A DNA stretch of 64,000 bases. Source: Anaerolineae bacterium (GTDB lineage: Bacteria > Chloroflexota > Anaerolineae > Promineifilales > Promineifilaceae). The stretch is taken from the NCBI GenBank assembly GCA_023954475.1, contig JAMLHW010000019.1:2768-66767 (forward strand). The letters run 5' to 3'. Made by a program: the position numbers and the translations under genes. The notes beneath the pieces were generated by a model. It was given only the letters and a program-made list of their open reading frames with translations. It did not search any database and was not told where the DNA came from. Positions 1-12,961 of the stretch are shown piece after piece (the first letter of the stretch is position 1; each line of letters opens with the position of its first letter).

Positions 1-1448
1 CCCCGTTCCCAATTGTGACCCGATCCGGCCAGCAGGTCATCGGCAGCCGACGGCCCCCATGATCCGGGTTCATAGTGGGCGAGAGGTGGGCCATCGTCAG
101 CTTCCCAGCCGTTGATAATGGGATCGATAATGCGCCAGGCCCGCTCGATATTGTCCGCACGTGTGAACAGAGTGGGATCGCCCTCAAGTGCTTCGAGCAA
201 CAGCTTTTCGTATGCTTCCGGTATCGGCGCGTTGCCAAACGAGTCAGCATAGTGAAATTCCATGTCGACCGACTTCATCGTGGCTGCAGTCCCCGGCTGT
301 TTGGCTTCAAAGCGCAGATGAATCCCTTCGTCGGGCTGCACGCAAATGGAGAGTAAGTTGGGTCTGGGCGTATACGGTTCCGGCAAAGGGAACATATTGT
401 GTGGTGGGCACTTGAACTGAACAGCGATTTCTGTGCTCTTGTCCGCCAGTGCTTTGCCGGAGCGCAGGTAAAATGGCACACCTTGCCAACGCCAATTGTC
501 GATGTAGAGGCGGAGCGCAGCAAAAGTCGGCGTTTTCGAGTTCGGTGTGACATCTTCACTATCGAGGTAGCCGTCGTATTGAGCCAGGACGGTGTTGGCG
601 GTGAGGTTGTCGCCGTTTATCGGCCGAATCGCGGCAAACACCTTGCTTTTTTCATTGCGAATCGCATTCGCCTCAAACGAACTCGGTGGTTCCATCGCCA
701 CCAGACTCAACAATTGTAACAAGTGATTCTGAAACATGTCGCGCAGCACGCCGGCTTTATCGTAGTAGCCTGCACGCCGACCGACATCGACCGATTCTGC
801 TGCCGTAATCTGCACACTTTCGACGTAATTGCGATTCCACAGCGGTTCAAAAATAGTATTGCCGAAGCGGAACACGAGAATATTCTGCACGGTCTCTTTC
901 GCCAGATAGTGGTCGATGCGGTAGATTTGCGATTCGTCCAGTTCGGCGTGAATGGCATCGTTGAGGGCTTCGGCCGATTTAAGATCATGTCCGAACGGTT
1001 TCTCGATGACAACGCGTCGCCAGCCGGATTTTTCGTGTACCATGCCCGATGCTCCCAGGTGAGCAATGGTTTCGGCAAAAAAGCGCGGCGCAACGGCGAG
1101 ATAATAGAGTCGGTTGGCGACATCGCCTTCCTGTTGCTTCAGAAAATCGTCGATAGCGCGATAAATATCCGGCTCGTTTAAGTTGCCGGGAATGTAGTGA
1201 ATAGTCGGCGCGAAGGTGTCCCAAATCGCCGGATCGAAGGTATCCGGTGTAAATTGTTGCAAGCCAGTGCGGAGTTTTGCACGAAATTCGGCCGAACTAT
1301 ATGCTCGCCGTGATGATCCGACCACGCGAAAGTTGGCCGGCAGGCGCTCTTTCACGTGCAGATTGTACAAACCTGGAATCAATTTGCGCCAGGTCAGGTC
1401 ACCCGATGCGCCGAAAATCACAACCGAAGTCGATTTACTGTCACTCAT
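1..1448 (-). CDS. zwf: glucose-6-phosphate 1-dehydrogenase; 3' end lies beyond the left edge (missing from the supplied ORF track because it runs off the window)
   Basis: Own minus-strand translation from ATG 1446-1448 gives [43 protein letters not shown] (G6PD NADP motif GASGDLxxRKL). In-frame [14 protein letters not shown] lies around 890-930 (G6PD signature RIDHYLGKE). The start overlaps the gnd stop as TAATG. Confidence 0.9.
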
Positions 1449-2359
1449 TATTCCTCTGCCTTCTTCACCGCATGGCCGCCGAATTGGTTGCGCATGGCGG
1501 CGAGCAATTTTGCCCAATATTGCGTGTCGTCTCGGCTGGCAAAACGCATTTGCAGCGCCAATGTAATCACTGGCGCAGGGACACTCAGATCAATTGAATC
1601 GAATACCGTCCAGCGTCCTTCGCCACTATCTGGCACAAACCCTTCAATGCCGCTCAACTCCTGGTCGTCGGCCAGCGCAAGCGCCGTCAGATCGAGCAGC
1701 CACGAGCGAACCACGCTGCCGTAGCGCCAGATTTCAGCAATTTGATGTAGATCGAGTCCGAACTCAGTTTTGGCACGCAAAATATCAAACCCTTCGGCAT
1801 ATGCCTGCATCATGCCGTATTCAATGCCGTTGTGTACCATTTTGGTGTAATGGCCGGAACCGCGTGGCCCGACATGTCCCCAGCCTTTGTCGGCAGCCGG
1901 TGCCAATGTTTCCAATACAGGACGGATATGTGCCACGGCGTCATCGGCGCCGCCAACCATCATGCTGTACCCTTCAGCCAACCCCCATACGCCGCCGCTT
2001 GTGCCGACATCAACCATATAGATGCCTTTATCGGCCAATGTATCACCGCGCTGGATAGTATTTTTGTAGTTGCTGTTGCCACCGTCAATGACGATGTCAC
2101 CCGGTTCCAGCAGGTCGCCGAGTGTGACGAGGACGCCGTCGGTAGGTTTGCCTGCCGGAACCATCACCCAGACAGTGCGCGGCGCCGACAGCTTGTCGAC
2201 CAATTCGCTGATTGATGCGGCTCCGATTGCGCCGTGGGATTCGGCCGATTGCACCGCCTCTACACTCAAATCCGACACCACGACGCGATGACCACCGTTT
2301 AGCAAGCGCTGCGTCATATTCGCGCCCATTTTTCCCAGACCGATCATGCCGAGTTCCAT
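1448..2359 (-). CDS. gnd: 6-phosphogluconate dehydrogenase, decarboxylating, short (about 300 aa) form
   Basis: 303 aa ORF with N-terminal Rossmann motif [16 protein letters not shown] and 6PGDH-like core ([23 protein letters not shown]). Lies between pgl/GDE and zwf in one operon. Confidence 0.85.
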
Positions 2360-2442
2360 TGTATTCTCCTTTGGGAAGCGTTTAGCTGTTGGCTATTAAC
2401 TTTGATGTTCCATTCTTCAGATGCAGTGAAGGTTGGTTGAAC

Positions 2443-4413
2443 TTACGTCGTCGGGGTGGTTAATGCCCAACAGCGCAACAGTTCGGCAACCGTCCAGGCC
2501 TGAGCATTACAGCCGCGTGGCGTGAACGGTGCATCGCCGTCGAAGATTTCACTCAGACTGCCGACGCAGTGGCCGTTCAGGTGGCGCAGCAACGGCTGAA
2601 GAAATGAACCCGCTCGTTGTGCGTCGTGGTAGACGCGCAGATGGGCAGCGACGTAAGGCCCGATCAACCAACCCCATGTCGTGCCTTGATGGTAAGCACC
2701 GTCACGGGTTATACGACTGCCGCCGTACACGCCGACGTAATCAGGGTGCTCGGGAGACAGGCTGCGCAAGCCGTGGGGGGTCAGCAAATGGTGCGTACAC
2801 GTATCGACGACTGCTTTCTGTTGCGCTGGTGTCAGCGGTGAGTAAGGCAGTGAGACGGCAAAGAGTTGATTCGGCCGAAGTGCATCATCGTTCCCGTCAG
2901 GCCCGTCAATGACGTCAAAGCAATATCCTTTCGCCGCATTCCAGAATTTGTTGAAATGGGTTTGCACGAGATCGGCCAATTGTTCGTATTTGCTTGCGCT
3001 GAGACCGGCAATCTGGGCGAAATCGCACATGATGCGCAGCGCATTGTACCAGAGGGCACTGATCTCAACTGGTTTGCCGATGCGCGGCGTCACGACCCAC
3101 AAGTCGACTTTGGCGTCCATCCATGTCAATTGTACGCCGGGTGAGCCACCGTAAATCAGACCATCGGCCGAATCAGCTTTGATGTTATAGCGCGTACCCT
3201 TCAAATGCCAATCAATAATGTCGTCGAGTACGATGAACAGCTCTTTGATCAGCGCCCCATCGCCAGTTTGTGCATAATACGCGCGAATGGCTTCAAAATA
3301 CCACAAAGTCGCGTCGATTGTATTATATTCCGGTTGCTCACCTTCGTCCGGGAACCGGTTGGGCAACATGCCTTTGTCGACATAGTGCGCAAACGTCTGC
3401 AAAATGCTGCGGGCGACGTGGGAGCGACCTGTATGCAATGTCAGGCCTGGCAGGGCGATCATGGTATCGCGGCCCCAATCACTAAACCATGGATAACCGG
3501 CAATGATGGTGTGTCCGTCACCGGCGGGTGTCGTGCGCTTGACGATAAACTGGTCGGCTGCCAACACCAATTGATCAATGGCCGCCGTCTTGTCGGGTAG
3601 ATCGTCTCCGGCAGAGAGCAGGGCATCATCCAATGACCGGCGTACTTCGTAGGCTGTCTGGCCGTCCAGATCGGGCGCAGCGTCGGTTGTTGCAACCAAT
3701 GTCAGCGATTCGCCCGGTTCGAGAACGGCCGAAAATGTGCCGGCGAGTAAATTATCGTCATGGTCACCCGTGTGCCGGTAATGTTCGATAGCGGCGTAGA
3801 ATTTCTTTTGCCAGATGTAGCGCGGTTGTACCGATCCGCGATCGCTGTAGACGTAATAGGGTGCCATGCCGACAGCACCGGTGAGTTGTAATCCGCCATC
3901 GACTGGTGTGACGGCCAAGTGGGCAGTGGCAGCCTCTGTGTGGCTGTGATAGTCGCGATGGTTGACGAGCGCGTCGAGGACGAGTGCCAATGGCCCACTA
4001 CCGCGCACAAAGTTGTAGCGTACGTAAGTTGTATTTGCGCCGGCCTGCATCCAGATGCGTTTTTCGAGTACGGCGTCGGCAAAGGTGTATGTCCAGACGG
4101 GTGTTGACCCTTCGAGGCGGAATTGTTCGATGTGCGCATAGCCGTTGGGTGAGACGATGTCTGGCCCCCAGCGATTGGCAAATACTGGGTAGCGCTGCCC
4201 TCCGTACCCGGCAGTGGCTTCGAGCTTGGTGACGAGCAGCGTGCGCCCCAGCGGCGGCTTGAGCGCGGCGATGAGCAGCCCGTGGTAGCGTCGACTAAGG
4301 ATGTCGGAGACGGTTCCCATAGCGAAGCCGCCGATGCCGTTGGTGACAAGCCATTCCCGGTTTTCGGCCGAAACCAGTTCATTACACGTGTCGCGTCCAA
4401 ATTCGATAGTCAT
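2443..4413 (-). CDS. glycogen debranching enzyme / amylo-alpha-1,6-glucosidase family protein
   Basis: 667 aa ORF with GYPWFSDWGRDTMIALPGL and WMDAKVD...VTPR motifs typical of the GDE C-terminal (alpha/alpha)6 family. ATG at 4413 (MTIEF...) gives an ATGA overlap with the pgl stop, so it is preferred over the track start at 4446. Confidence 0.85.
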   Translation of the reverse strand: MTIEFGRDTCNELVSAENREWLVTNGIGGFAMGTVSDILSRRYHGLLIAALKPPLGRTLLVTKLEATAGYGGQRYPVFANRWGPDIVSPNGYAHIEQFRLEGSTPVWTYTFADAVLEKRIWMQAGANTTYVRYNFVRGSGPLALVLDALVNHRDYHSHTEAATAHLAVTPVDGGLQLTGAVGMAPYYVYSDRGSVQPRYIWQKKFYAAIEHYRHTGDHDDNLLAGTFSAVLEPGESLTLVATTDAAPDLDGQTAYEVRRSLDDALLSAGDDLPDKTAAIDQLVLAADQFIVKRTTPAGDGHTIIAGYPWFSDWGRDTMIALPGLTLHTGRSHVARSILQTFAHYVDKGMLPNRFPDEGEQPEYNTIDATLWYFEAIRAYYAQTGDGALIKELFIVLDDIIDWHLKGTRYNIKADSADGLIYGGSPGVQLTWMDAKVDLWVVTPRIGKPVEISALWYNALRIMCDFAQIAGLSASKYEQLADLVQTHFNKFWNAAKGYCFDVIDGPDGNDDALRPNQLFAVSLPYSPLTPAQQKAVVDTCTHHLLTPHGLRSLSPEHPDYVGVYGGSRITRDGAYHQGTTWGWLIGPYVAAHLRVYHDAQRAGSFLQPLLRHLNGHCVGSLSEIFDGDAPFTPRGCNAQAWTVAELLRCWALTTPTT

Positions 4414-5150
4414 AACGCTCTCCCGGCTGATTCGTCGATCAGCCATGTGATTGTACCGTTTTTCGGCCGAATGCGTTGTGCCGGCAGGTTGACCGGATCA
4501 TCCGGCCCGTTGAGTACGCGTTGCAGCGCATCGGCCTTATTGGCTCCTGTCACCAGAAAAAGCACGTGGTGCGCGTCGTTGAAGACGGCTTGCGTCAACG
4601 TCACACGCCTCGACGGACGGTTCTCGTAGTCAGCCGTTATTGCCAGCACCGGCTGCGTGGCACCATCGGCCGGATCACTGCCCGGAAAAAGCGAAGCCGT
4701 GTGCCCGTCACTGCCCATGCCCAGCAGCGCCACATCGAGCTGCGGCCACATGCGCCCCGGTTCTGCCAGCGCTGCCAGTCGACGTTTGTAGTCATTTGTT
4801 GCCGCATTCGGTTCCAGTTCGCCTTTGATGCGATGGATGTGGCTGTCCGGCACAGCAATATGTGTCAAAATGGTGTCGTGGACTTGCCGGTAATTGCTCC
4901 CTGAAGCATTTGGTGGCACCAGACGTTCGTCGCCCCAGAGAAAATGAACTTGCTGCCACGGCATTTGCGTAGCGTACGGTTTGGTCGCCAGTAATTCGTA
5001 GAGTCTTTGCGGTGTGCCACCGCCGGAAAGCGCGATGAGAAAGCGCCCACGTTGTTCAACGGCAGCTTGCGCAATGGTGACAATCTGTTTGGCGGCGTAG
5101 TGGCTGAGCACGTCGTCATCGGGAAACTGGGTAACGGTTGGCATCGCCAC
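4410..5150 (-). CDS. pgl: 6-phosphogluconolactonase
   Basis: 246 aa ORF with LSGGGTPQRLYELL, WGDERLVP and LLGMGSDGHTASLFPG motifs of the Pgl/NagB family. Confidence 0.9.
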   Translation of the reverse strand: MAMPTVTQFPDDDVLSHYAAKQIVTIAQAAVEQRGRFLIALSGGGTPQRLYELLATKPYATQMPWQQVHFLWGDERLVPPNASGSNYRQVHDTILTHIAVPDSHIHRIKGELEPNAATNDYKRRLAALAEPGRMWPQLDVALLGMGSDGHTASLFPGSDPADGATQPVLAITADYENRPSRRVTLTQAVFNDAHHVLFLVTGANKADALQRVLNGPDDPVNLPAQRIRPKNGTITWLIDESAGRAL

Positions 5151-5156
5151 GATCTT

Positions 5157-5189
5157 AGAAACCGGGTTTCTCCAAGAAACCCGGTTTCT
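5157..5189 (-). terminator. perfect 15-bp inverted repeat hairpin (AGAAACCGGGTTTCT CCA AGAAACCCGGTTTCT) just after the acyltransferase stop
   Basis: Read directly. The arms are exact reverse complements with a 3-nt loop, and the hairpin sits between the stop at 5198 and the pgl start. There is only a short T stretch, so terminator function is tentative. Confidence 0.45.
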
Positions 5190-5197
5190 GGTTACAA

Positions 5198-6376
5198 TTA
5201 ACGAAAGATGGCGTCGCGGCGGGCAACGCGCTCATTGAGCATGGTCTGAATCGTGTGATGCGTCTTTTTGGCTAGTTGGGCGACAATGTCGTCATTTTCG
5301 GCCGAATCCGTTTCAAAGCTGCTCACTGACAACGGTTCACCAAACTCAATCGTCCATTTGGTTGGGTATGGCACAGCAGCCAACAATCCCAGCCACGGAA
5401 ACCGCAGCGTAATGGGAAAATAAGGAATACGCAGCCATTCGGCAATAGAACGGGCGTTGTGGACGGCGACATAGGTTTCCTCACCGCCAACAACGGCAAC
5501 GGGGATGATCGGCGCAGCGTGCCGCAAAGCCAGTCTGACAAAGTCGTCGTTGCGGAACGGCGTCATCTGGTAGCGATCCCAGAAGAGTTTGCCGGAACCG
5601 CGCAATCCTTCGGGGAAGACGGCAATTAAGTGACCTTGTTCGAGTAAGGCAGCGGCATTTTCGGCCGAATCGCTGGCATACCCGGTTTTATTGAGCAGCG
5701 ACGCCAGAACAGGCACATGTGCAAGCCGCGATGCATACAGAGGACGCACCATGCGCTCGTCGAAATGTTCTTTGGCAACTGCTGTGGCAATCATAGCGGC
5801 GTCAAACGGCAGTTGGCCGGAATGATTGGCGACCAGGATTGCCGCTTCACCGTCGTTGGGAACGTGTTCGATACCCAATGTCGTGACACGCCAGTAACGC
5901 GTGTAGAGAAAGTCGACCAATGGGCGCACCGCGTCGTTAAACTCCGGATCAAATCCCCATTCGTCCGTCTCGAAATCACCGGCAGCCCGTCGTTTGGCAG
6001 TGTCCACGTAACTCTGCACCGTATAGCTGATGAGAAACCAGATACCGCGATATGTGTCGGCGTCGAACGGATCGACATTGGCCGCGATCACGCCCAATTG
6101 ATCGAGCCAGCCCTGCGCGAACGATGGCGTCAGACGACGCACACCGCGTCCGATTTGATCGAAGGCGACTTCGGCCGAAAATCCGAGTGGTACGAACTCC
6201 GGATCAATGGCACGCAACCGCTCGATCACCTTGTTGAGTTCGTCGATTAACTGCTCACGCAGCGCCGTTACATCGACTTCGTCGTCAATATGTACGTCAT
6301 TGTCAGCGGTATCCGCGGCATGTCCGTTGACGTGTATTGCTTCATCTTCCATATAGTCTGTCCTAACGCCGCGCAT
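5198..6376 (-). CDS. PlsC-like glycerolipid/lysophospholipid acyltransferase with about 170 aa N-terminal extension
   Basis: 392 aa ORF with the acyltransferase block VANHSGQLPFD and the FPEGLRGSGK block. The N-terminal part carries the DTYRGIWFLISYT motif shared with the adjacent SAP protein. Alternative ATG at 6352. Confidence 0.75.
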   Translation of the reverse strand: MRGVRTDYMEDEAIHVNGHAADTADNDVHIDDEVDVTALREQLIDELNKVIERLRAIDPEFVPLGFSAEVAFDQIGRGVRRLTPSFAQGWLDQLGVIAANVDPFDADTYRGIWFLISYTVQSYVDTAKRRAAGDFETDEWGFDPEFNDAVRPLVDFLYTRYWRVTTLGIEHVPNDGEAAILVANHSGQLPFDAAMIATAVAKEHFDERMVRPLYASRLAHVPVLASLLNKTGYASDSAENAAALLEQGHLIAVFPEGLRGSGKLFWDRYQMTPFRNDDFVRLALRHAAPIIPVAVVGGEETYVAVHNARSIAEWLRIPYFPITLRFPWLGLLAAVPYPTKWTIEFGEPLSVSSFETDSAENDDIVAQLAKKTHHTIQTMLNERVARRDAIFR

Positions 6377-6410
6377 TCAGATAGCTCCGAACTATCTAAA
6401 CGCTGCCGGA

Positions 6411-7073
6411 TTAATTGTCTGTTTCACCCAACACCATCTGCTTGAGTTCCTGTGCTTTCGACTGCGCCGTGTAAGATGCCAGAAACCAGATGCCCCGGTA
6501 CGTATCTATTTCGAGCAAGTCGCGTGGGCCGATGTTTTGCGCTATTTGTCCCAGACCGACCAGGGTCTCGCCGCCGGGCAACTGCTGCACCAGCGCACCC
6601 AACCCGCTGACACTTTGTTGCAGTTCTTCCGCCTTGGAGTGCGCCGTGTAGTTGAGCAGAAACCACATGCCTTTCCATGTGTCGGGGTCGAGGATGTCCT
6701 GTGGAGACATGCCGGCGGAAACCTGTTTCAGTTCGCGGAGAATGCCGATGCGCATGTCGGGCGTGAACTTCACCATGTTTTCGCGCAGCAGATTGAGCAA
6801 AGCTTGCCTTGAGTAGGGCGGTGGATCGTATCCGTCAACCGTTTCCTGCAATTCTTCGACGACCTCGTTCAAGCCTTCCAGCACTTCGTAGAATTCCTGT
6901 TGATCGGCCGAAGGGCCGGCAGGCGCATTTTGCGCAGCGGCTGCTTCGGCGGCAAGAGCGCGTTCAAGTCGGGCGATCAATTCTGCTTTGCGCCCGCCAA
7001 CTTTGAGGTCGCGCTCGCGCAGCATCTCTTTCAGGGCCGGAACAGTGTACTGGTTCAGATTTACATTGCTCAT
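6411..7073 (-). CDS. SAP (Rho_N-like) domain protein with two internal DTxxGxWFLxxYTAxSKAxEL repeats
   Basis: 220 aa ORF. N-terminus YTVPALKEMLRERDLKVGGRKAELIARLE fits the SAP consensus. GGAG lies 7 nt upstream of the ATG. Confidence 0.6.
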   Translation of the reverse strand: MSNVNLNQYTVPALKEMLRERDLKVGGRKAELIARLERALAAEAAAAQNAPAGPSADQQEFYEVLEGLNEVVEELQETVDGYDPPPYSRQALLNLLRENMVKFTPDMRIGILRELKQVSAGMSPQDILDPDTWKGMWFLLNYTAHSKAEELQQSVSGLGALVQQLPGGETLVGLGQIAQNIGPRDLLEIDTYRGIWFLASYTAQSKAQELKQMVLGETDN

Positions 7074-7104
7074 CGTGATCTCCGGTACATAGTGGATGTC
7101 AAGT

Positions 7105-9273
7105 TTAATGGCCGCGTTTGCGCAGGAAAACGAGTCCGGCGCTTACGGCAGCGGCGGCTGCGCCGGCAGCTGCACCAGCAACGACCAATTTGCTCTTGTC
7201 ATCTTTGTCGTCGCTTATCTCATAGCCTGCTTCGGCATCGAGGCGCTTGAGTCCTGCGGCTGCTTCGGTCTGCACTTGAGCGAATTTTTCCGGATCGGCA
7301 CGCAAGGCGTCAGCCAGCGCGCGTTTTTCGGCTAAATCTTCATCGGTCAGGAAGTGGCCGTGGCTGCGGATGCCGGAAAGTTCCAGACCGTGCTTCTTGT
7401 AGAGCCGGTAGATTTCTTTGACGCGATCGATTTCGATTTCGCGGCCCAGCGTGTAATCTTCGAAGAGGCCTTCCATGGCCAGCAAGGCTGTCTCGGCAAG
7501 GCAGGCATAGGCGACACCTGGCGGCAGGCCGATGTCGTATCCGTAATCAGGATTGCCGGGGAGCAGGATTTCGCCGGATTCGATGACCAGCATGTCGGGA
7601 CGCAGCGCGGCTTCTTCGGCCGTTATGTCGGGTGGACGCGCGATGTCACAGACGACGGCTCCCGGTTTGCATTTGCTGACGTCGATAATGCGTTGGTTGA
7701 GTGCTGTCGTGGTCGTGACGATCAGGTCGGCGTCGGCAACATGATAATCGGCCGAAGTGCTAATCGTCACATGGGCGTCCGGCGTTTCTTCTTCAATCGT
7801 CCGTTTCAGCGCGATCAATTTTTCCGGGCGCGGTGCCACGAGCGTGATATTGGGGATGGCCTGTGCCAGTAAGCGCGAGCAAACAGAGCCAATTGATCCG
7901 GTTGCGCCGATGACCATGACATTGCCCTGGCGCGAATCTTCCAGCCGGTGCCCCATCTGTACCAATGCCTGTTTGGCCGTTTCCAACGTAGCGGCAACGG
8001 TGAGGCTGTTGCCCGACGTAATGGCGATGTCGGATTTTTGCGCGACGGTAATGCCGGCATCGCCGACCACTGACGTAAACGCGCCGAGGCCCATCAACCG
8101 CGCGCCGCGCCGTTCCGCCATCCGGGCGCAGTAAATCAACTGGCGATAAATGAGACCTGGCTCAAGACGCATCAGTTCCTTTGGCGTGCCGCCTAAACCG
8201 TAGAGATAGCCTTCAATTTTTTGGCCGGTTGCCGGACTTTCTATGCCGGTGATTTTGCTGATGTAAAACGGACGGATGCGGCTGGCAGCGCGTTCGACGA
8301 CAGCGTCAGGCAAATATTTAGTAAAGGCGAACCGCGGGCTATTGTGGATGAACTTGATGCTCAGTGGGTGGATGACAAAAGCGAATCGGTTAATGCCGGC
8401 GTCGTCGCTGAGGAAACGCATGCCCGGTGACCAATTGAGATCGGCCATCAGGTTGAGGTATGTGTCTTCACTGAGCGGCGCTGATTGGTCTTCGCGAATG
8501 GAGACCAGTGCGGCTTCAAACACGGCTGCACCGTGTTCGGCCAGATCGTTATCGGTCAATGACGGCATGGTAGTGACGAGTACGGATGCATTGCGACTTT
8601 GTAAATCGGCGACATCTTCGTCAGTAGCGTATTCGGTGACGATGGTTTTGCTTTTGAGTGAGGCGGGGCTATACCGGCGAATAGCACCCATATCGCCGGC
8701 AATGATATCGGCCGATTTGAACATTTCTTCGTCGCGCTTGACACCTGCCGTACCGGCAGCAGGGAAAATTAAACGGAACGATTGATCCGCCATGCGCTTG
8801 AGACTGAACAAAATCGGTGCGTTGGGATCATAAATGCGCGCATCGGCCGCGTGTACTTCTTCCGTGTACTGTCGGAATGCTTTTGTCAAGCCACTGTGAT
8901 TGAGTGACGGCACGAGCAAAATCTGTTTGCGTGACCAGATGCCGGGTTGATTATCGTCGGCCAGACGCAATGCCCAGCGTTCCATGGCAGCACGCACGCC
9001 ACTGCCATCGACGACTGGCGTTTCCTCCGCGATAGCAAACAGCTTCGCGCCTTCGACATGGGTCACGCGGTCGCTGCCGATGCGCAGCGTTTTGGCGACA
9101 CCTTCGAGCGCGATGGCATCGACTTTGCCGTCGAAATCGCTGATATGGGCCGACATGACGGCCAAATCTTTGTCACAGCCGATGTGTTCGACTGAAATGG
9201 TGTTGTCGAGGAGGCGTATTGCTTCAGTACGGCGCTCTGTTGGCCGGAAATGCAGGACGACGATTTTGTTCAT
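7105..9273 (-). CDS. fusion protein: unknown N-terminal domain (about 290 aa), acyl-ACP reductase (AAR)/shikimate-DH-like NAD(P) domain, and a C-terminal transmembrane tail
   Basis: 722 aa ORF. The central region matches remembered blocks of cyanobacterial AAR (LGAFTS vs GGFTS, TSGNSLTV vs TTGNTHTA, VIGATGSIGSVCSRLL vs VVGATGDIGSAVCRWL, ACLAETALLAMEG vs ACFAEAMLLEFEG). The tail GAAAGAAAAAVSAGLVFLRKRGH is hydrophobic. AAGGAG lies 9 nt upstream of the ATG. Confidence 0.6.
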   Translation of the reverse strand: MNKIVVLHFRPTERRTEAIRLLDNTISVEHIGCDKDLAVMSAHISDFDGKVDAIALEGVAKTLRIGSDRVTHVEGAKLFAIAEETPVVDGSGVRAAMERWALRLADDNQPGIWSRKQILLVPSLNHSGLTKAFRQYTEEVHAADARIYDPNAPILFSLKRMADQSFRLIFPAAGTAGVKRDEEMFKSADIIAGDMGAIRRYSPASLKSKTIVTEYATDEDVADLQSRNASVLVTTMPSLTDNDLAEHGAAVFEAALVSIREDQSAPLSEDTYLNLMADLNWSPGMRFLSDDAGINRFAFVIHPLSIKFIHNSPRFAFTKYLPDAVVERAASRIRPFYISKITGIESPATGQKIEGYLYGLGGTPKELMRLEPGLIYRQLIYCARMAERRGARLMGLGAFTSVVGDAGITVAQKSDIAITSGNSLTVAATLETAKQALVQMGHRLEDSRQGNVMVIGATGSIGSVCSRLLAQAIPNITLVAPRPEKLIALKRTIEEETPDAHVTISTSADYHVADADLIVTTTTALNQRIIDVSKCKPGAVVCDIARPPDITAEEAALRPDMLVIESGEILLPGNPDYGYDIGLPPGVAYACLAETALLAMEGLFEDYTLGREIEIDRVKEIYRLYKKHGLELSGIRSHGHFLTDEDLAEKRALADALRADPEKFAQVQTEAAAGLKRLDAEAGYEISDDKDDKSKLVVAGAAAGAAAAAVSAGLVFLRKRGH

Positions 9274-9463
9274 TAACTATGTTCTCCTTCGCGGTTGGTG
9301 ACAGTCGCGCCGTGTGGCTCTCCAATTGTGGCTTCGGCGTTAGTGTGATTCGATTGGTAGTTGTGCGTTGGCTGCGCCGCTCCGTAACTGTGTCAGATGC
9401 TGTTAGAAGCTTCGGCAACGGTCGAGCCTTTGGAATGATTATAGGTTTGACCGTGTTTTTCCG

Positions 9464-11107
9464 TCAAGCGTTTGCCGCCGGGTCTGAGTGGAGTGCTACG
9501 CTGGACAGATTGTGGGCTGCAATGGCGATGGCAGCGTGGTGAGCCATCGTCATCGGTGCGCGATTGTAGAGGTAGTAGCGGCCAAGATGACTGGGCAAGA
9601 CGGTGTGCAAGACGCCGATGTAGCGGCCAAATGCAACGAGCGGACAAACCATCGCTGTGCCACGTACGGGCAGACATGGCTCTGTGACGGGTTCGATGTC
9701 TTTTATTGACAAATTGGCACGCAACATGTCGTCAGCTACGCGCCCGATGAAACCGGTACCTACTGCAATGTTTTCCGGTGGTGCGACACTCTCCAGCCCG
9801 CGCAGTGCCAGTCGATGGTGGATGCCGTTGGTCTCATCGTAAAGATGTAAGGATGCTTGCAGGCTTTCAAAGTCGTTGATCATGGAGGTGGTGAGGATGG
9901 CGGCCACATTTTCGGCCGAATCCTGATTCGACAGTTGTTGAGCAGCAACCTCCAGCGCGATCAATCCCTGATTCGTCTCACCCGAAATCAGGTCGAGTCT
10001 TTGCTCAAGCGCCTGTAACTTCACCTCCATGTCAAATTGATGCTGTTCCAACCGATCGGCATCGTCGGTTACCAGTACCGACGTCAGCGAAGCGATCAAA
10101 ATACTCGTAATGACAAAGCCGACCAAAATCAGACCGACGGTAATCAACCGTCCTTCCAGCGTCGTAGGATTGTAGAGGTCGGCATAACCGCCCGTAATCA
10201 CCGTGGTAAAACTCCACCACAAACTTTGGTCAATGTCGCCGATACTCGATGATTGATTGCCCTCGATCAACAAGATGGCAATGGCGCCGAGTGTCAGCAG
10301 GATGATTGCAGCCCAAACCGAGCGTTTGACCAGTTTGAGTTCGAGGGTGCGCATCAGTTGATCGAGGCCACGGGAGTAGAGAGACAGGGATCGGGCAGCA
10401 CGACTCAGGCGGGCAAAGCGCAGGATGCGGGCAAAACGGGCGATGCGTGCCAAACGGCCCAGGCGCAAAATGCCTGTGGCGGGAATGGATGAAACAAAAT
10501 CGATCCAATAGCGACTGACATACCAGCGCCGGTCTTCTGCTGCCCAGAGTCGGAAGAAGAAATCGCCGAGCAGCAGAAAACAAATCAAGGTGTCGATCAG
10601 GACGAACGTGTTGAATGTTTCGGCCGAAATGGGCACAAAGATTTCGATCAATGTGAGCGCGACAGCAACCAGAATGGCGATGAAGATGACGGCTTCGAGC
10701 AGATTGAGATTGCGTCGGCTGCCTAAAATGCTGAGCAACCTGCTGTGCAGATGTCGTTCGAGCAGGGCCTGGTCGATTTCTTGCAGATGGGCATTGAGTG
10801 TCTTCCATTCGGCCGAAATGCGATTGATTTGCTGCCTTGATCGTTCTGTCTCTACCGGGTTTCCTTGCTGCACGAAGTGCAAAAAAGCTTGATTCGCCGC
10901 ATCCAGCATTTTTTCAACGCGCGCCATTTCATCGAGTAAGGCGTGGCGCATCTGCGTCAGCGTCGGTTCATCACAATCGGTCAGACGCCAATGCGCGGCT
11001 TGCCGCCGGATAGTAGCGACATCGGCTTCGTGGCGTGCAAACTCGCGTACTTTATCGTGATCGTGGTAATTGGCAGGGTTTGGATCGATTGCCGGATCGG
11101 TACTCAT
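9464..11107 (-). CDS. voltage-gated cation channel (Kv-like) with N-terminal coiled coil and C-terminal GAF-like domain
   Basis: S4 helix RLGRLARIARFARILRFARLSRAAR, pore region WWSFTTVITGGYADLY, and a GAF-like C-terminus. ATG 11107 (MSTDPAI) is preferred because the track start TTG 11143 falls inside a TTGACG -35-like box. Confidence 0.75.
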   Translation of the reverse strand: MSTDPAIDPNPANYHDHDKVREFARHEADVATIRRQAAHWRLTDCDEPTLTQMRHALLDEMARVEKMLDAANQAFLHFVQQGNPVETERSRQQINRISAEWKTLNAHLQEIDQALLERHLHSRLLSILGSRRNLNLLEAVIFIAILVAVALTLIEIFVPISAETFNTFVLIDTLICFLLLGDFFFRLWAAEDRRWYVSRYWIDFVSSIPATGILRLGRLARIARFARILRFARLSRAARSLSLYSRGLDQLMRTLELKLVKRSVWAAIILLTLGAIAILLIEGNQSSSIGDIDQSLWWSFTTVITGGYADLYNPTTLEGRLITVGLILVGFVITSILIASLTSVLVTDDADRLEQHQFDMEVKLQALEQRLDLISGETNQGLIALEVAAQQLSNQDSAENVAAILTTSMINDFESLQASLHLYDETNGIHHRLALRGLESVAPPENIAVGTGFIGRVADDMLRANLSIKDIEPVTEPCLPVRGTAMVCPLVAFGRYIGVLHTVLPSHLGRYYLYNRAPMTMAHHAAIAIAAHNLSSVALHSDPAANA

Positions 11108-11281
11108 AAGTGTGTATTGTGCCGATTTCCGCTGTTGCGTCAATATGGCAACCGCTTTCTGCAGAATTTTCGCATTCTGATTTTATAACAGCCGTGTTGA
11201 CTTTTCGGCCGAAAGGTGGCGCAACATGGGCGCATTTTCTATACTACGCGACACAAACCTTGTCCTCAGGAGAGCCACACT

Positions 11282-12961
11282 GTGACCACCGACATCCGCT
11301 TTGATACGTATTATCGCTACGACGCTATCACGCAATTTCTCCACAATTGGCCCGAAAAATACCCCGATCTATGCCGGCTGAGCAGCATCGGTAAGAGCTA
11401 TCAGGATCGCGACATCTGGTTGCTGACGATCACGAATTTCGACACAGGCCCCGATACGGAAAAGCCCGCCTTCTGGATAGACGGCAATATTCATTCTGTC
11501 GAATTGTCAGCGTCATCGGCAGCGCTCTATCTGATCAACCATCTGTTGACGCACTACGGCAGCGACGAACGCGTCACGCACGCACTCGACAGCCGTGTTT
11601 TTTACATCGTGCCGCGCCTCAATCCGGATGGTGCCGAATGGGCGCTGGCTGATGATCCGATCTATATCCGTTCCACAACGCGCCCGTTTCCGCGCACCGA
11701 CCAACTTGATGGTCTGATTCGACGTGACAGCGACGGTGACGGGCGCGTGCTGCAAATGCGCATCAAAGATCCCAACGGTGCGTTCAAGCCCCATCCGGAG
11801 CATCCGCGCCTGATGATTTTGCGCCAGCCAGACGATTTGCCGGGTGGCGACTATTACCGCTTGCTGCCGGAAGGGAAGATTCAAAATTACGACGGCGTGA
11901 CGATCAAGCTGGCACCGCGCAAGCAAGGGTTGGATATGAATCGCAATTTTCCGGTGGAGTGGACACCGGAGCAGGTAACAGGCGGTGACTATCCGGCAAG
12001 TGAGCCGGAAATCCGGTCAGCGGTTGATTTTATTGTCAAGCATCCCAATATCACCGGTGCGATTACGTTTCACACGTTCAGCGGCGTGCATCTGCGTCCG
12101 CCGACAAAGGGGCCGGAATCGGTCTTGCCGACGCGTGATTTGCGGACGTACAAGACAATCGGCCGAAAAGCGACTGAGCTGACCGGTTATGCGGCTATCT
12201 CTGTCCATGAGGACTTTGCGTACGATCCCAAATCCTACATCAAAGGTACGTTTGACGATTGGATGTATGAGCATCGCGGTGTCTATGCCTGGACAACAGA
12301 AATCTGGAGTCCGCAGCAACAGGCCGATCTCAAGGATTACCATTACATCGACTGGATGCGCGAACATTCGGCCGAAGACGATCTGAAGATCATCCGCTGG
12401 TTTGAGGAAAACGCACCCGAAGGATATGTCGACTGGTACGAATACGACCACCCGCAACTGGGTAAAGTCGAGTTGGGAGGCTGGCACGATATTTACTCGT
12501 GGAGCAATCCGCCGCACAAGCTGCTGGAAAAAGAAATCGCACCATTGGCCGAATTTGCCCTGTACCAATGCCTGATTTCGCCCAGACTCGAACTGCACAG
12601 CGTCGATGTTACATCCAACGGTGACACACATCGCATCCGCCTCGTCGTGGAAAACACGGGTTGGCTGCCGACCAACGTCACCGAGCAGGCGTTGAACATG
12701 AAGATCGCACAGCCTGTCGAAGTCGATCTTGAGTTGCCGGAAGGTGCGCGTTTGTTGATGGGCGAGCTAAAGACGTTTGGCGGACAACTGGCGGGGCGCG
12801 ATCATCGCAGTGCGCTCACAATCTGGAGCGCCGATGTAACCGATAATCGGTTGAAAGTAGAGTGGGTGGTTGCCGCGCCGTCAGGAACAACGGTCAACTT
12901 GACTGCGCAACACGACCGCGCCGGTGTCGTGCGCACGTCAGTGGTCCTCGGCAACCATTAG
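11282..12961 (+). CDS. M14 family zinc carboxypeptidase
   Basis: ORF 11216-12961 has the zinc motif GNIHSVELSA (HxxE) and M14-like architecture. GTG 11282 is preceded by AGGAG, so it is the preferred start. Confidence 0.8.
   Translation: MTTDIRFDTYYRYDAITQFLHNWPEKYPDLCRLSSIGKSYQDRDIWLLTITNFDTGPDTEKPAFWIDGNIHSVELSASSAALYLINHLLTHYGSDERVTHALDSRVFYIVPRLNPDGAEWALADDPIYIRSTTRPFPRTDQLDGLIRRDSDGDGRVLQMRIKDPNGAFKPHPEHPRLMILRQPDDLPGGDYYRLLPEGKIQNYDGVTIKLAPRKQGLDMNRNFPVEWTPEQVTGGDYPASEPEIRSAVDFIVKHPNITGAITFHTFSGVHLRPPTKGPESVLPTRDLRTYKTIGRKATELTGYAAISVHEDFAYDPKSYIKGTFDDWMYEHRGVYAWTTEIWSPQQQADLKDYHYIDWMREHSAEDDLKIIRWFEENAPEGYVDWYEYDHPQLGKVELGGWHDIYSWSNPPHKLLEKEIAPLAEFALYQCLISPRLELHSVDVTSNGDTHRIRLVVENTGWLPTNVTEQALNMKIAQPVEVDLELPEGARLLMGELKTFGGQLAGRDHRSALTIWSADVTDNRLKVEWVVAAPSGTTVNLTAQHDRAGVVRTSVVLGNH

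Follow-up and report, generated by a model that had tools for sequence, protein, structure and literature searches.

What does an uncultured bacterium of the Anaerolineae make with a three-gene locus that pairs a predicted thioester reductase with an acyltransferase-like protein? The locus lies in a 64,000-nt stretch of DNA (the window) and encodes proteins of 722, 220 and 392 amino acids, here called A, B and C. All three genes lie on the minus strand, as do all features given below, with A at 7105–9273, B at 6411–7073 and C at 5198–6376; these coordinates bear out the initial annotation of co-directional genes separated by 31 nt (A/B, 7074–7104) and 34 nt (B/C, 6377–6410). A GGAG is found 9–12 nt 5′ of the A start codon (ATG, 9273). 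About 165 nt upstream of this start, a sigma-70-like promoter candidate (9438–9467, TTGACG-18 nt-TATAAT, 11/12 consensus match) overlaps the stop of the upstream channel-like gene; it comes from a consensus scan only, in a region where the total of such sites is not above the shuffle expectation. Between the C stop codon (5198–5200) and the start of pgl (5150), a hairpin with a perfect 15-bp stem and a 3-nt loop (5157–5189; ΔG −25.1 kcal/mol, z −4.2) has arms that are unique in the window, with a chance expectation of 0. There is no T-run 3′ of the hairpin, which may be a transcript end or a processing or attenuation site. Besides the tight spacing, the promoter-like site and the terminal hairpin, the operon signals include synteny: the closest relative (L163) keeps the same A-SAP-acyltransferase order, with identities of 87% (A), 73% (B) and 74% (C).

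By its sequence, the central domain of A (residues 296–655, 7309–8388) is a member of the AAR/PigE-N superfamily of NAD(P)H-dependent thioester reductases. It contains a GATGSIG motif (456–462) and a catalytic-type cysteine, Cys591, in YACLAET. This cysteine aligns with that of the AAR/PigE ACxAE block, and both it and the glycine motif are invariant across 31 homologues. In PigE and AAR, the equivalent cysteine holds the acyl-enzyme intermediate (PMC8341465). The domain had initially been likened to cyanobacterial AAR on account of four sequence blocks, three of which (TSGNSLT, VIGATGSIGSVCSRLL and ACLAETALLAMEG) proved exact, while the fourth reads GAFTS and not GGFTS. The likeness extends to the superfamily, the nucleophilic cysteine and the NAD(P)-binding motif, but it is weak: the AAR family model (TIGR04058, E 4.7e-13, 49 bits against an equivalog cut-off of 449.7) and the AAR structure (PDB 6jzq, E 2.7e-8) score much below PigE positions 2–358 (NF053554, E 1e-48) and the PigE structure (PDB 4ppm, E 3e-25). 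Thus, A is not an AAR orthologue; among characterised proteins, the reductase domain of PigE is its closest relative. A and AAR are nonetheless predicted to share a fold and a catalytic logic, in which acylation of the cysteine and reduction by NADPH yield a fatty aldehyde. AAR passes this product to its partner enzyme ADO, whereas there is no ADO within 10 kb of A, which carries two extra modules and neighbours an acyltransferase and a putative adaptor instead of an alkane-forming enzyme.

Could A then be a PigE-like enzyme of specialised metabolism, its thioester reduction feeding an amine, alkaloid or pyrrole pathway? The sequence of A residues 297–655 is closest to the N-terminal thioester-reductase domain of PigE/TamH, from the prodigiosin and tambjamine pathways, and PigE-type reductase-aminotransferase fusions are the best HMM, PDB and plasmid matches. 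A Cys-containing ACxAET block and a GxxGxIG NAD(P)-binding motif align, and each protein joins its reductase to a partner domain. However, identity is only about 24–31%, and the PigE partner is a C-terminal class-III aminotransferase whereas that of A is an N-terminal domain of no known family, together with a membrane anchor. Moreover, no aminotransferase domain or neighbour, PigD-like enzyme, pyrrole-pathway neighbour, PKS or NRPS gene was found nearby, and A is near-universal in its clade, unlike a specialised-metabolite gene. We therefore consider a PigE-like role highly improbable. Even less credible are the database names: NCBI and JGI label homologues of A as serine carboxypeptidase, shikimate/quinate dehydrogenase or amino-acid dehydrogenase, and Pfam Shikimate_DH does reach 26.4 bits against a cut-off of 24.3. 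This match spans only the Rossmann fold (residues 443–557), however, and the NCBIfam aroE and hemA models, like those of cyclodeaminase, remain at 15–29 bits against cut-offs of 200–430, so that shikimate/quinate dehydrogenase and GluTR, the comparison proposed at the outset, are rejected. Pfam and NCBIfam detect no peptidase domain of any kind in A, and the thioester-reductase Cys motif is invariant.

The whole of A is a fusion: an N-terminal domain is followed by the AAR/PigE-type reductase domain and, after a linker, by a membrane anchor at the C-terminus. It has more than 5,400 homologues and is found in at least 580 species-level genomes; the full-length architecture of ~730 amino acids is kept at 50–87% identity in Anaerolineae, Caldilineales, Ardenticatenaceae, Chloroflexaceae and Roseiflexus, with a mean column identity of 70% across classes. 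The hydrophobic tail of the initial annotation is real: residues 694–722 (7108–7194) comprise an Ala/Gly-rich hydrophobic helix (Kyte-Doolittle mean 1.93 over residues 697–715) followed by RKRGH, and a tail with a basic end is common to the homologues (consensus + R718). The tail weakly matches a C-terminal sorting-domain model (E 0.0012) and no N-terminal signal sequence is apparent in A; we read the C-terminus as a putative tail anchor.

The region preceding the reductase (residues 1–295, 8389–9273), left unassigned in the initial annotation, indeed has no sequence match in Pfam, NCBIfam or the PDB. The structure prediction suggested there yields an undescribed two-lobed alpha/beta domain (AlphaFold pLDDT 87.8, pTM 0.89), for which Foldseek finds generic two-lobe matches only (TM 0.3–0.5). 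Its many invariant polar residues include H8, D48, H72, D89, R94, E98, W100, K116, N125, H126, Y148, R180, R199, R200, Y201, K209, D220, D223, R227, E253, Y272 and W281. This N-domain also occurs as stand-alone proteins of ~300 amino acids, and in 35 of 66 metagenome loci the stand-alone gene lies directly 5′ of a stand-alone reductase gene, often with overlapping stop and start; the partner reductase is 40% identical to A residues 294–654. Because they occur as adjacent separate genes in other bacteria, the N-domain and the reductase are likely functional partners. In other phyla, such pairs sit among housekeeping genes (birA, coaX, dusB, greA, lysS) with no lipid genes nearby and an HTH regulator as the only conserved extra neighbour. 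The pair therefore appears to have a self-contained function for which C is not needed. A and C could be neighbours without a common pathway, A being a self-contained, near-universal Chloroflexota enzyme whose aldehyde is used for something else, and B and C serving separate lipid remodelling; the very high conservation of A points the same way.

What, then, do C and B contribute? The catalytic domain of C (Pfam residues 164–295, 5492–5887) matches PF01553 (E 8e-12), and the top Foldseek match is PlsC (5kym, E 2e-7, TMt 0.56), with GPATs and PatA next. The initial label of PlsC-like acyltransferase thus holds only for the fold and the Pfam domain; the PEG and IPV...G.EE-type blocks are likewise shared with the PlsC/GPAT/PatA superfamily (PDB 5kym, 1k30, 5f2z). 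However, the HX4D motif is replaced by NHSGQxPxD (184–192), which is invariant in 29 homologues together with PEG (255–257), P289/I291/P292 and G297/E299/E300; C reaches 26.9 with TIGR00530, whose cut-off is 102.95, and a PDB profile search retrieves PlsC at E 0.28 only. C further differs from this superfamily in a helical N-terminal extension of ~140 residues (1–140, 5957–6376) that contains a motif common to B (6002–6064), and it has no predicted transmembrane helix.

Gene B opens with the SAP domain initially reported (residues 6–40, 6954–7058; Pfam E 6e-11, 42 bits against a cut-off of 23.9) and contains two copies of the motif D-x-D-T-[WY]-[KR]-G-[IM]-W-F-L-x-[NS]-Y-T (6624–6689 and 6444–6509). 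Its residues 63–157 match C residues 42–133 (BLASTP E 3e-12) and residues 174–219 match C residues 94–138 at 54% identity; judged from these alignments, B combines a SAP domain with a paralogue of the N-terminal extension of C. The B family comprises only 14 clusters, 4 of which have SAP, and in L169 a B-like gene adjoins two phasin genes. The combination of a DNA-binding-type SAP domain with a lipid-enzyme- or phasin-associated module recalls the PHA granule-to-nucleoid adaptors of the PhaM/PhaF type, and purely by this analogy B might bind DNA or inclusions.

Conserved linkage between A and the acyltransferase had been suggested as a check, and the linkage is real, since A lies next to the C homologue at 4 of 6 C loci, but facultative (10 of 58 informative A loci). 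The order A-SDR-acyltransferase-SCP2-SCP2-FeADH-patatin is found in L006, L009, L011, L039, L059, L060, L064 and others, and L082, L165 and L166 additionally carry a second patatin and an AMP-binding (acyl-CoA-synthetase-like) gene. Upstream of the relatives' clusters, in divergent orientation, are genes for phasin, PhaR-like and SRPBCC proteins. Of 80 A loci, 23 have at least one member of this gene set. The 64-kb window contains no SDR, Fe-ADH, SCP2, patatin or phasin gene, and A-B-C looks like a cut-down version of this uncharacterised lipid gene cluster recurrent in Chloroflexota. How does this bear on A and C acting separately? The low linkage count and the housekeeping contexts favour separation, as do two loci (L081 and L164) that keep the SDR-acyltransferase-SCP2 core without A. 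Against it, the association recurs where A is only 52–68% identical to window A, always on the same strand and in the same order and with other lipid genes joining it; and B-like genes, relatives of the C N-terminus, lie directly 3′ of A even where the acyltransferase is absent (L003 and L005). We judge separate pathways to be rather less than likely, though a serious alternative.

The clustered SDR, SCP2, Fe-ADH, patatin, phasin and PhaR-like genes support a role in a lipid derived from fatty aldehyde or alcohol, probably tied to storage inclusions. The module initially proposed thus gains from the relatives' neighbourhoods, but its product (wax ester, diol lipid or other) is conjectural. We infer the following order of steps. 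A would be a tail-anchored enzyme facing the cytoplasm and probably forms aldehydes from activated fatty acids: Cys591 would be loaded from an acyl-ACP or acyl-CoA thioester, and the acyl group then reduced with NAD(P)H. The fused N-domain would be an obligate partner of the reductase domain; on the model of AAR-ADO, GluTR-GSAM and the PigE fusion of reductase and aminotransferase, it probably either takes over the aldehyde or delivers the substrate. An acyltransferase cannot directly use an aldehyde, and the window cluster lacks an aldehyde-to-alcohol enzyme; reductase and acyltransferase alone, initially taken as the minimal logic, are therefore not chemically sufficient. This step would fall to the clustered Fe-ADH or SDR in relatives and to an enzyme encoded elsewhere in the present genome. 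C, with its PlsC/GPAT fold and atypical active-site motif, would then esterify a hydroxyl acceptor. B, in effect a free-standing copy of the C extension with a SAP domain, may serve as an adaptor or in targeting, perhaps as a tether for the enzymes or for a lipid inclusion. There would be a parallel in myxobacterial ElbD, a single protein of ether-lipid synthesis that unites a reductase with an AGPAT domain: there, too, one genetic unit combines fatty-acyl reduction with an acyltransferase of the PlsC superfamily to make an unusual lipid. ElbD also contains adenylation and carrier domains, and its reductase is of the SDR/FAR type; A-B-C has none of these.

Alternatively, the module could make a membrane lipid backbone, such as alkane-1,2-diol-based lipids or alkyl-ether glycerolipids via a DHAP-type route; in the diol version, A would reduce a 2-hydroxyacyl thioester and C would acylate the diol. 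Diol glycosides have been reported from Roseiflexus. A is present in Roseiflexus and Chloroflexaceae bins, is membrane-anchored and is conserved like a core gene, and the GPAT/PlsC fold of C would suit such a role. In Thermomicrobium, diol-lipid synthesis has been proposed to begin with fatty acid reduction (PMC2615216). However, A does not adjoin the acyltransferase in the Roseiflexus and Chloroflexaceae loci, the cluster has no alkyl-DHAP synthase, fatty-acid 2-hydroxylase or head-group enzyme, and a search of the T. roseum megaplasmid (chromosome left out) gave no match. The phasin, PhaR, patatin and SCP2 genes nearby suggest inclusions and turnover instead. We find a membrane backbone quite unlikely.

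The genetics of wax esters in Chloroflexota is not completely the blank assumed in the initial annotation, as Roseiflexus has been reported to possess a protein with a WS/DGAT domain (PMC4520822). For a storage lipid, two observations call for caution: the high conservation of A is more in keeping with a core role than with storage, and the phasin and PhaR-like neighbours could simply reflect PHA metabolism. With these reservations, we tentatively propose that A-B-C is a lineage-specific, trimmed form of a Chloroflexota cluster for an ester lipid derived from fatty aldehyde or alcohol, which would most likely be of neutral or storage type and linked to phasin-coated inclusions.

Gene A, encoding a fusion protein of 722 aa (7105..9273), gene B, encoding a SAP-domain protein of 220 aa (6411..7073), and gene C, encoding an acyltransferase-like protein of 392 aa (5198..6376), belong to a longer co-directional array on the minus strand. 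These open reading frames confirm the initial annotation of three co-directional genes with gaps of 31–34 nt (31 nt between A and B, 34 nt between B and C). A near-consensus sigma-70-type site (TTGACG-18-TATAAT, 9467..9438, minus strand) overlaps the stop codon of the upstream channel-like gene, and GGAG lies ahead of the A start codon (ATG). At the other end, a perfect 15-bp hairpin with a 3-nt loop (5157..5189, minus strand; dG −25.1 kcal/mol, z −4.2) lies between the C stop codon and the pgl start codon. Its arms are unique within the window, and no T-run follows it. Such a hairpin might act as a variant terminator, as a site of RNA processing or in the translational control of pgl. Given the tight spacing, the sigma-70-type site and the terminal hairpin, A-B-C can be read as one candidate transcription unit.

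The same A-SAP-acyltransferase-...-pgl order is found in L163, the closest relative on record, and Anaerolineae metagenome-assembled genomes encode identical or almost identical proteins. The channel-like protein upstream of A (559 aa, 9464..11143, minus strand) has an Ion_trans/Ion_trans_2 core at residues 150–358, flanked by a long N-terminal region and a C-terminal region of ~200 aa that both lack a family match; its gene is syntenic in L163. An M14 zinc carboxypeptidase gene (11216..12961, plus strand) is divergent from the channel-A-B-C array and syntenic in L163 and in a further locus, L167. PADLOC returned no match for A, B or C and so lends no support to an anti-phage defence reading.

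Residues 297–655 of A gave their best NCBIfam match to the PigE model NF053554 (positions 2–358 of 837, E 1e-48) and matched PDB 4ppm with E 3e-25 and the acyl-ACP reductase (AAR) structure PDB 6jzq with E 2.7e-8. Two sequence blocks carry this relationship: (i) YAC591LAET aligned to the Cys-containing ACxAE block of PigE and AAR; and (ii) GATGSIGS (residues 456–463) aligned to their nucleotide-binding motif. Both blocks were invariant among 31 full-length A homologues. In AAR, Cys294 bears the acyl-enzyme intermediate and is equivalent to Cys296 of the enzyme with which it was compared (PMC8341465). From these matches and the invariant Cys and nucleotide-binding blocks, we conclude that A contains a predicted thioester-to-aldehyde reductase of the AAR/PigE superfamily, in a clade apart from both AAR and PigE. 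The initial annotation had called this domain AAR-like, which holds at the level of the superfamily, but PigE-N is closer and the AAR equivalog TIGR04058 scored only 49.2 bits (E 4.7e-13) against a curated cut-off of 449.7 bits.

A is not an AAR equivalog: besides that score, AAR is a single-domain soluble protein of ~340 aa whose gene lies beside that of aldehyde-deformylating oxygenase, whereas A has 722 aa, an extra N-terminal domain and a membrane tail, and its neighbours within 10 kb all have Pfam assignments other than that oxygenase. PigE-type proteins are fusions of a reductase to a class-III PLP aminotransferase, and A shares only their N-terminal reductase domain; its full-length NF053554 score was 166 bits, against the >850 required of a PigE-type bifunctional protein, and Pfam and NCBIfam scans detected no such aminotransferase domain in A or its neighbours. 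PigE-type reductase-aminotransferase fusions (24–31% identity) were also the sole relatives of A found by tblastn in plasmid records, where the Thermomicrobium roseum megaplasmid had none. A shikimate/quinate dehydrogenase or glutamyl-tRNA reductase, the identities against which the initial annotation had proposed to check the domain, can be ruled out: Pfam PF01488 (Shikimate_DH) matched only the Rossmann part (residues 443–557, 26.4 bits), the NCBIfam aroE and hemA models gave 16–26 bits against cut-offs of 209–429, and cyclodeaminase models also scored far below theirs. An Arg in the LVAPR motif after the second Rossmann strand is compatible with NADPH as cofactor, and NADPH-producing pentose-phosphate genes lie directly downstream of A-B-C; both hints are suggestive only.

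The A family is named 'serine carboxypeptidase' by NCBI and 'predicted amino acid dehydrogenase' by JGI (A and its homologues P0001, P0010, P0017, P0023, P0025 and P0090). No peptidase domain was detectable, and thus the former name is probably an annotation error that has spread between records. Our literature search on COG5322, AAR-like enzymes in Chloroflexi and Anaerolineae wax-ester genes found no functional study of the family.

What is the function of the N-terminal domain (N-domain, residues 1–295)? The initial annotation had left ~290 aa unassigned. By sequence, this region matched neither a Pfam or NCBIfam family nor any solved structure, and Pfam and PDB searches with the fused and the stand-alone alignments gave no credible match. 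The AlphaFold model predicts two alpha/beta lobes (pLDDT 87.8, pTM 0.89), for which Foldseek returned generic two-lobe proteins only, at TM 0.3–0.5 (sugar-binding proteins, carmabin TAD, AAR, malic enzyme, AroE). The TM values of 0.35–0.52 to AAR, carmabin TAD, AroE and malic enzyme raised the idea that the N-domain is a duplicated and degenerated reductase domain, but hhalign profile-profile comparison gave no support for this (probability 0.4%). Many His, Asp, Arg, Lys, Tyr and Trp residues are invariant in the N-domain, a pattern that suggests a binding or catalytic site and not a spacer.

An exhaustive search recovered 360 N-domain cluster representatives, many of them stand-alone proteins of ~300 aa. 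When 80 metagenome loci were sampled with an 8-sequence alignment, the stand-alone gene was recovered in 66, and in 35 of these it was directly followed by a stand-alone reductase gene of ~360 aa. In L105, one such locus, the N-domain gene (5995–6915) and the reductase gene (6915–8000) overlap by stop and start; this reductase is 40% identical to A residues 294–654, matches PigE-N and AAR best, and scores 127 bits against TIGR04058, also below the 449.7-bit cut-off. By Rosetta-stone logic, fusion in A and adjacent separate genes elsewhere argue that the two domains work together, with the N-domain the predicted obligate functional partner of the reductase. In other organisms, the pair is joined by a helix-turn-helix protein of ~180 aa between dusB and greA-lysS, near birA, bioY and coaX, with no lipid genes nearby. 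Loci with this conserved triad (within L083-L162; e.g., L105 5468–8000 and L134 5435–7869) come from anaerobic-bioreactor and sediment metagenomes, and in 12 of the L083-L162 loci a different protein of ~304 aa without family match takes the place of the reductase.

The hydrophobic C-terminal tail noted in the initial annotation is present: A ends in an Ala/Gly-rich hydrophobic helix (residues 697–715, mean Kyte-Doolittle value 1.93) followed by RKRGH, and this basic-ended tail is conserved throughout the family. Since no N-terminal signal sequence is apparent in A, the simplest reading is that of a tail-anchored enzyme facing the cytoplasm.

C had been annotated as a PlsC-like acyltransferase, and its fold and Pfam match agree: PF01553 scored 45.5 bits (cut-off 23), and the modelled core (pLDDT mostly >85, with a low-confidence N-terminal extension) matched PlsC 5kym first in Foldseek (E 2e-7, TMt 0.56), followed by plant and human GPAT and PatA. 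However, C scored only 26.9 bits with the PlsC/AGPAT model TIGR00530 (cut-off 102.95), and its profile reached PlsC in the PDB with no better than E 0.28. In place of the canonical HX4D of PlsC/AGPAT, the C family has an invariant N184-H-S-G-Q-x-P-x-D192, in which His and Asp are six residues apart, so that the HMMER alignment to the PlsC NHQSLMD needs a gap. Because of these low scores and the altered motif, C is a distant member of the PlsC/GPAT superfamily. The Pfam scan of C returned only PF01553 and no WS/DGAT catalytic domain; if C makes wax esters, it would do so as a different enzyme class.

The SAP domain assigned to B is supported by PF02037 (residues 6–40, 42.1 bits, gathering score 23.9, E 6e-11), and the three nearest B homologues also have it. 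The B family comprises 14 clusters in 5.8 billion proteins, with SAP only in the four closest. The rest of B resembles C: residues 63–157 are homologous to the N-terminal extension of C (residues 42–133, E 3e-12), and the last 46 residues repeat the same segment with 54% identity to C, around a shared core D-x-D-T-[WY]-[KR]-G-[IM]-W-[FY]-[LM]-x-[NS]-Y-[ST]. As judged from these alignments, B evidently derives from the N-terminal extension of C. This core is not supported as an amphipathic membrane helix, as its hydrophobic moment is low (0.17–0.26), and no transmembrane segment was predicted in B or C. Many aligned C homologues, and the B-like proteins of loci L003 and L005, carry an N-terminal C-x5-6-G-x2-C-K-N-x(6-8)-Y-C-x-H motif (e.g., L009 11461–11560 and L003 5601–5700) that looks like a zinc ribbon. 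In the window lineage, C lacks this motif and B has SAP instead. Thus, two different putative nucleic-acid-binding modules occur at one position.

With one genome scanned per species, relatives of A numbered at least 580. The best 80 are full-length and 50–68% identical, and most of them come from bins of Anaerolineae, Caldilineales, Ardenticatenaceae, Chloroflexaceae and Roseiflexus. In 23 of these 80 loci, A was accompanied by one or more members of a recurring gene set. The usual order is A, extended SDR (PF01370), acyltransferase, SCP2, SCP2, Fe-alcohol dehydrogenase and patatin, as in the long cluster of L009 (8001–15494), and genes for phasin, PHB_acc_N (PhaR-like) and CoxG/SRPBCC proteins lie divergently upstream. 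Of the 60 loci that extend 3 kb or more upstream of A, 11 have phasin or PhaR-like genes on that side. Of the 58 loci that extend 4 kb or more downstream, 10 have a C-family acyltransferase gene there, on the same strand as A, so the expected linkage of A to an acyltransferase recurs in strand and order but only in a minority of loci. The association of A with lipid genes is recurrent, ordered and well beyond chance for such specific families, yet facultative.

Six loci with C homologues were compared: A adjoins C in four (L082, L163, L165, L166) and is absent from two (L081, L164), and only the window lineage lacks an SDR gene. L082 and L166 also have AMP-binding (acyl-CoA-synthetase-like) genes and a second patatin gene. 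In L003 (5601–10902) and L005 (10438–11399), the genes after A encode a B-like protein, SCP2, SCP2, Fe-alcohol dehydrogenase and patatin, but no acyltransferase catalytic domain; thus, the extension module can outlast the enzyme from which it derived. In L169 (5844–8056), a 351-aa B-like protein with 28% identity to B is encoded divergently beside two phasin genes. This gene stands ahead of polysaccharide-synthesis genes, with no A or acyltransferase gene nearby. SDR, SCP2, Fe-alcohol dehydrogenase, patatin, phasin and PhaR genes occur nowhere in the 64-kb window, whose cluster is a reduced version with B in place of the SDR.

Downstream of A-B-C, the window carries 6-phosphogluconolactonase (pgl, 4410..5150), glycogen-debranching enzyme (2443..4446), a 6-phosphogluconate-dehydrogenase-type gene (gnd-like, 1448..2359) and, cut by the window edge, a zwf-like gene for which only a GASGDLT signature points to glucose-6-phosphate dehydrogenase, all on the minus strand; the syntenic L167 has G6PD_N and G6PD_C fragments at the matching position. 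An NADPH-producing pentose-phosphate set and glycogen breakdown (1–5150) thus lie directly 3' of A-B-C, and in L164 a glycogen branching enzyme gene (GlgB) follows the SDR-acyltransferase pair. Through these neighbours, the A-B-C module may be linked to carbon-storage metabolism.

How might these proteins work together? A, a Cys-dependent and NAD(P)-binding homologue of thioester reductases, is fused to a partner domain and anchored in the membrane, and the wider cluster family is rich in lipid-handling genes. The reductase domain would convert acyl-ACP or acyl-CoA to an aldehyde. Characterised superfamily members pass the aldehyde to a partner (AAR to aldehyde-deformylating oxygenase, GluTR to GSAM, PigE to its aminotransferase; PMC8341465) and, by analogy, the N-domain may take over the aldehyde or act on it, or else bring in the substrate. 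The aldehyde would next be reduced to an alcohol by an SDR or alcohol dehydrogenase, clustered in relatives and presumably encoded elsewhere in this genome, and C would esterify a hydroxyl acceptor. SCP2 proteins could ferry hydrophobic intermediates, patatin could mobilise the product, and an inclusion could be structured or controlled by phasin and PhaR-like proteins. Docking of these proteins to A or to the inclusion may fall to B and to the N-terminal extension of C; the SAP domain, like the zinc-ribbon-like motif of relatives, hints by analogy at nucleic-acid tethering.

Several observations temper this scheme. The distribution and conservation of A far exceed its linkage to C, and in other phyla the N-domain/reductase pair clearly functions as a self-contained unit without acyltransferase. 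The reductase-plus-acyltransferase lipid logic of the initial annotation finds support in the lipid-rich clusters of relatives, but the window cluster lacks the aldehyde-reducing step; the observation made in the initial annotation is confirmed and the interpretation given there partly supported. The phasin and PhaR genes could relate to PHA and not to neutral lipid. We set aside mycobacterial Rv0501/Rv0502 as a possible counterpart of the SDR-acyltransferase pair; the passages of PMC10593935 on Rv0502, PlsM and PlsB2 contain no statement of Rv0502 function. Because Roseiflexus has a WS/DGAT-domain protein (PMC4520822), the wax esters of phototrophic Chloroflexota may be independent of the A system. 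The origin of the 1,2-diol lipids of Thermomicrobium is unresolved (PMC2615216), which leaves room for a more novel role of A. Its family might be the missing entry enzyme of Chloroflexota-specific non-glycerol or WS/DGAT-independent lipids (alkane-1,2-diol-based membrane lipids or phasin-coated wax-ester bodies), with the N-domain as a new aldehyde-processing partner, the NHSGQxPxD acyltransferase as ester-former and the SAP protein tethering enzymes or inclusion to the nucleoid; we consider this full proposal improbable. A-B-C is best described as known acyl reductase and acyltransferase logic, built here from a fusion enzyme not described before, a SAP adaptor and an acyltransferase of atypical motif.

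Sediments, hot-spring mats and wastewater sludge harbour abundant Anaerolineae and relatives of this class, whose lipid biosynthesis has, to our knowledge, hardly been charted. Chloroflexota are known for wax esters and long-chain diol lipids, made by routes that are poorly resolved. A represents a currently mislabelled protein family in hundreds of Chloroflexota species, and its relatives supply a concrete gene set for expression (A, SDR, atypical acyltransferase, SCP2, alcohol dehydrogenase, patatin and phasin). A-B-C is worth experimental follow-up with regard to its inferred product and physiological role. If the proposed activity is correct, A would be a new fatty-aldehyde-producing enzyme architecture of relevance to fatty alcohol and alkane engineering, a widespread annotation error would be corrected, and lipid biomarkers attributed to Chloroflexota might be explained.
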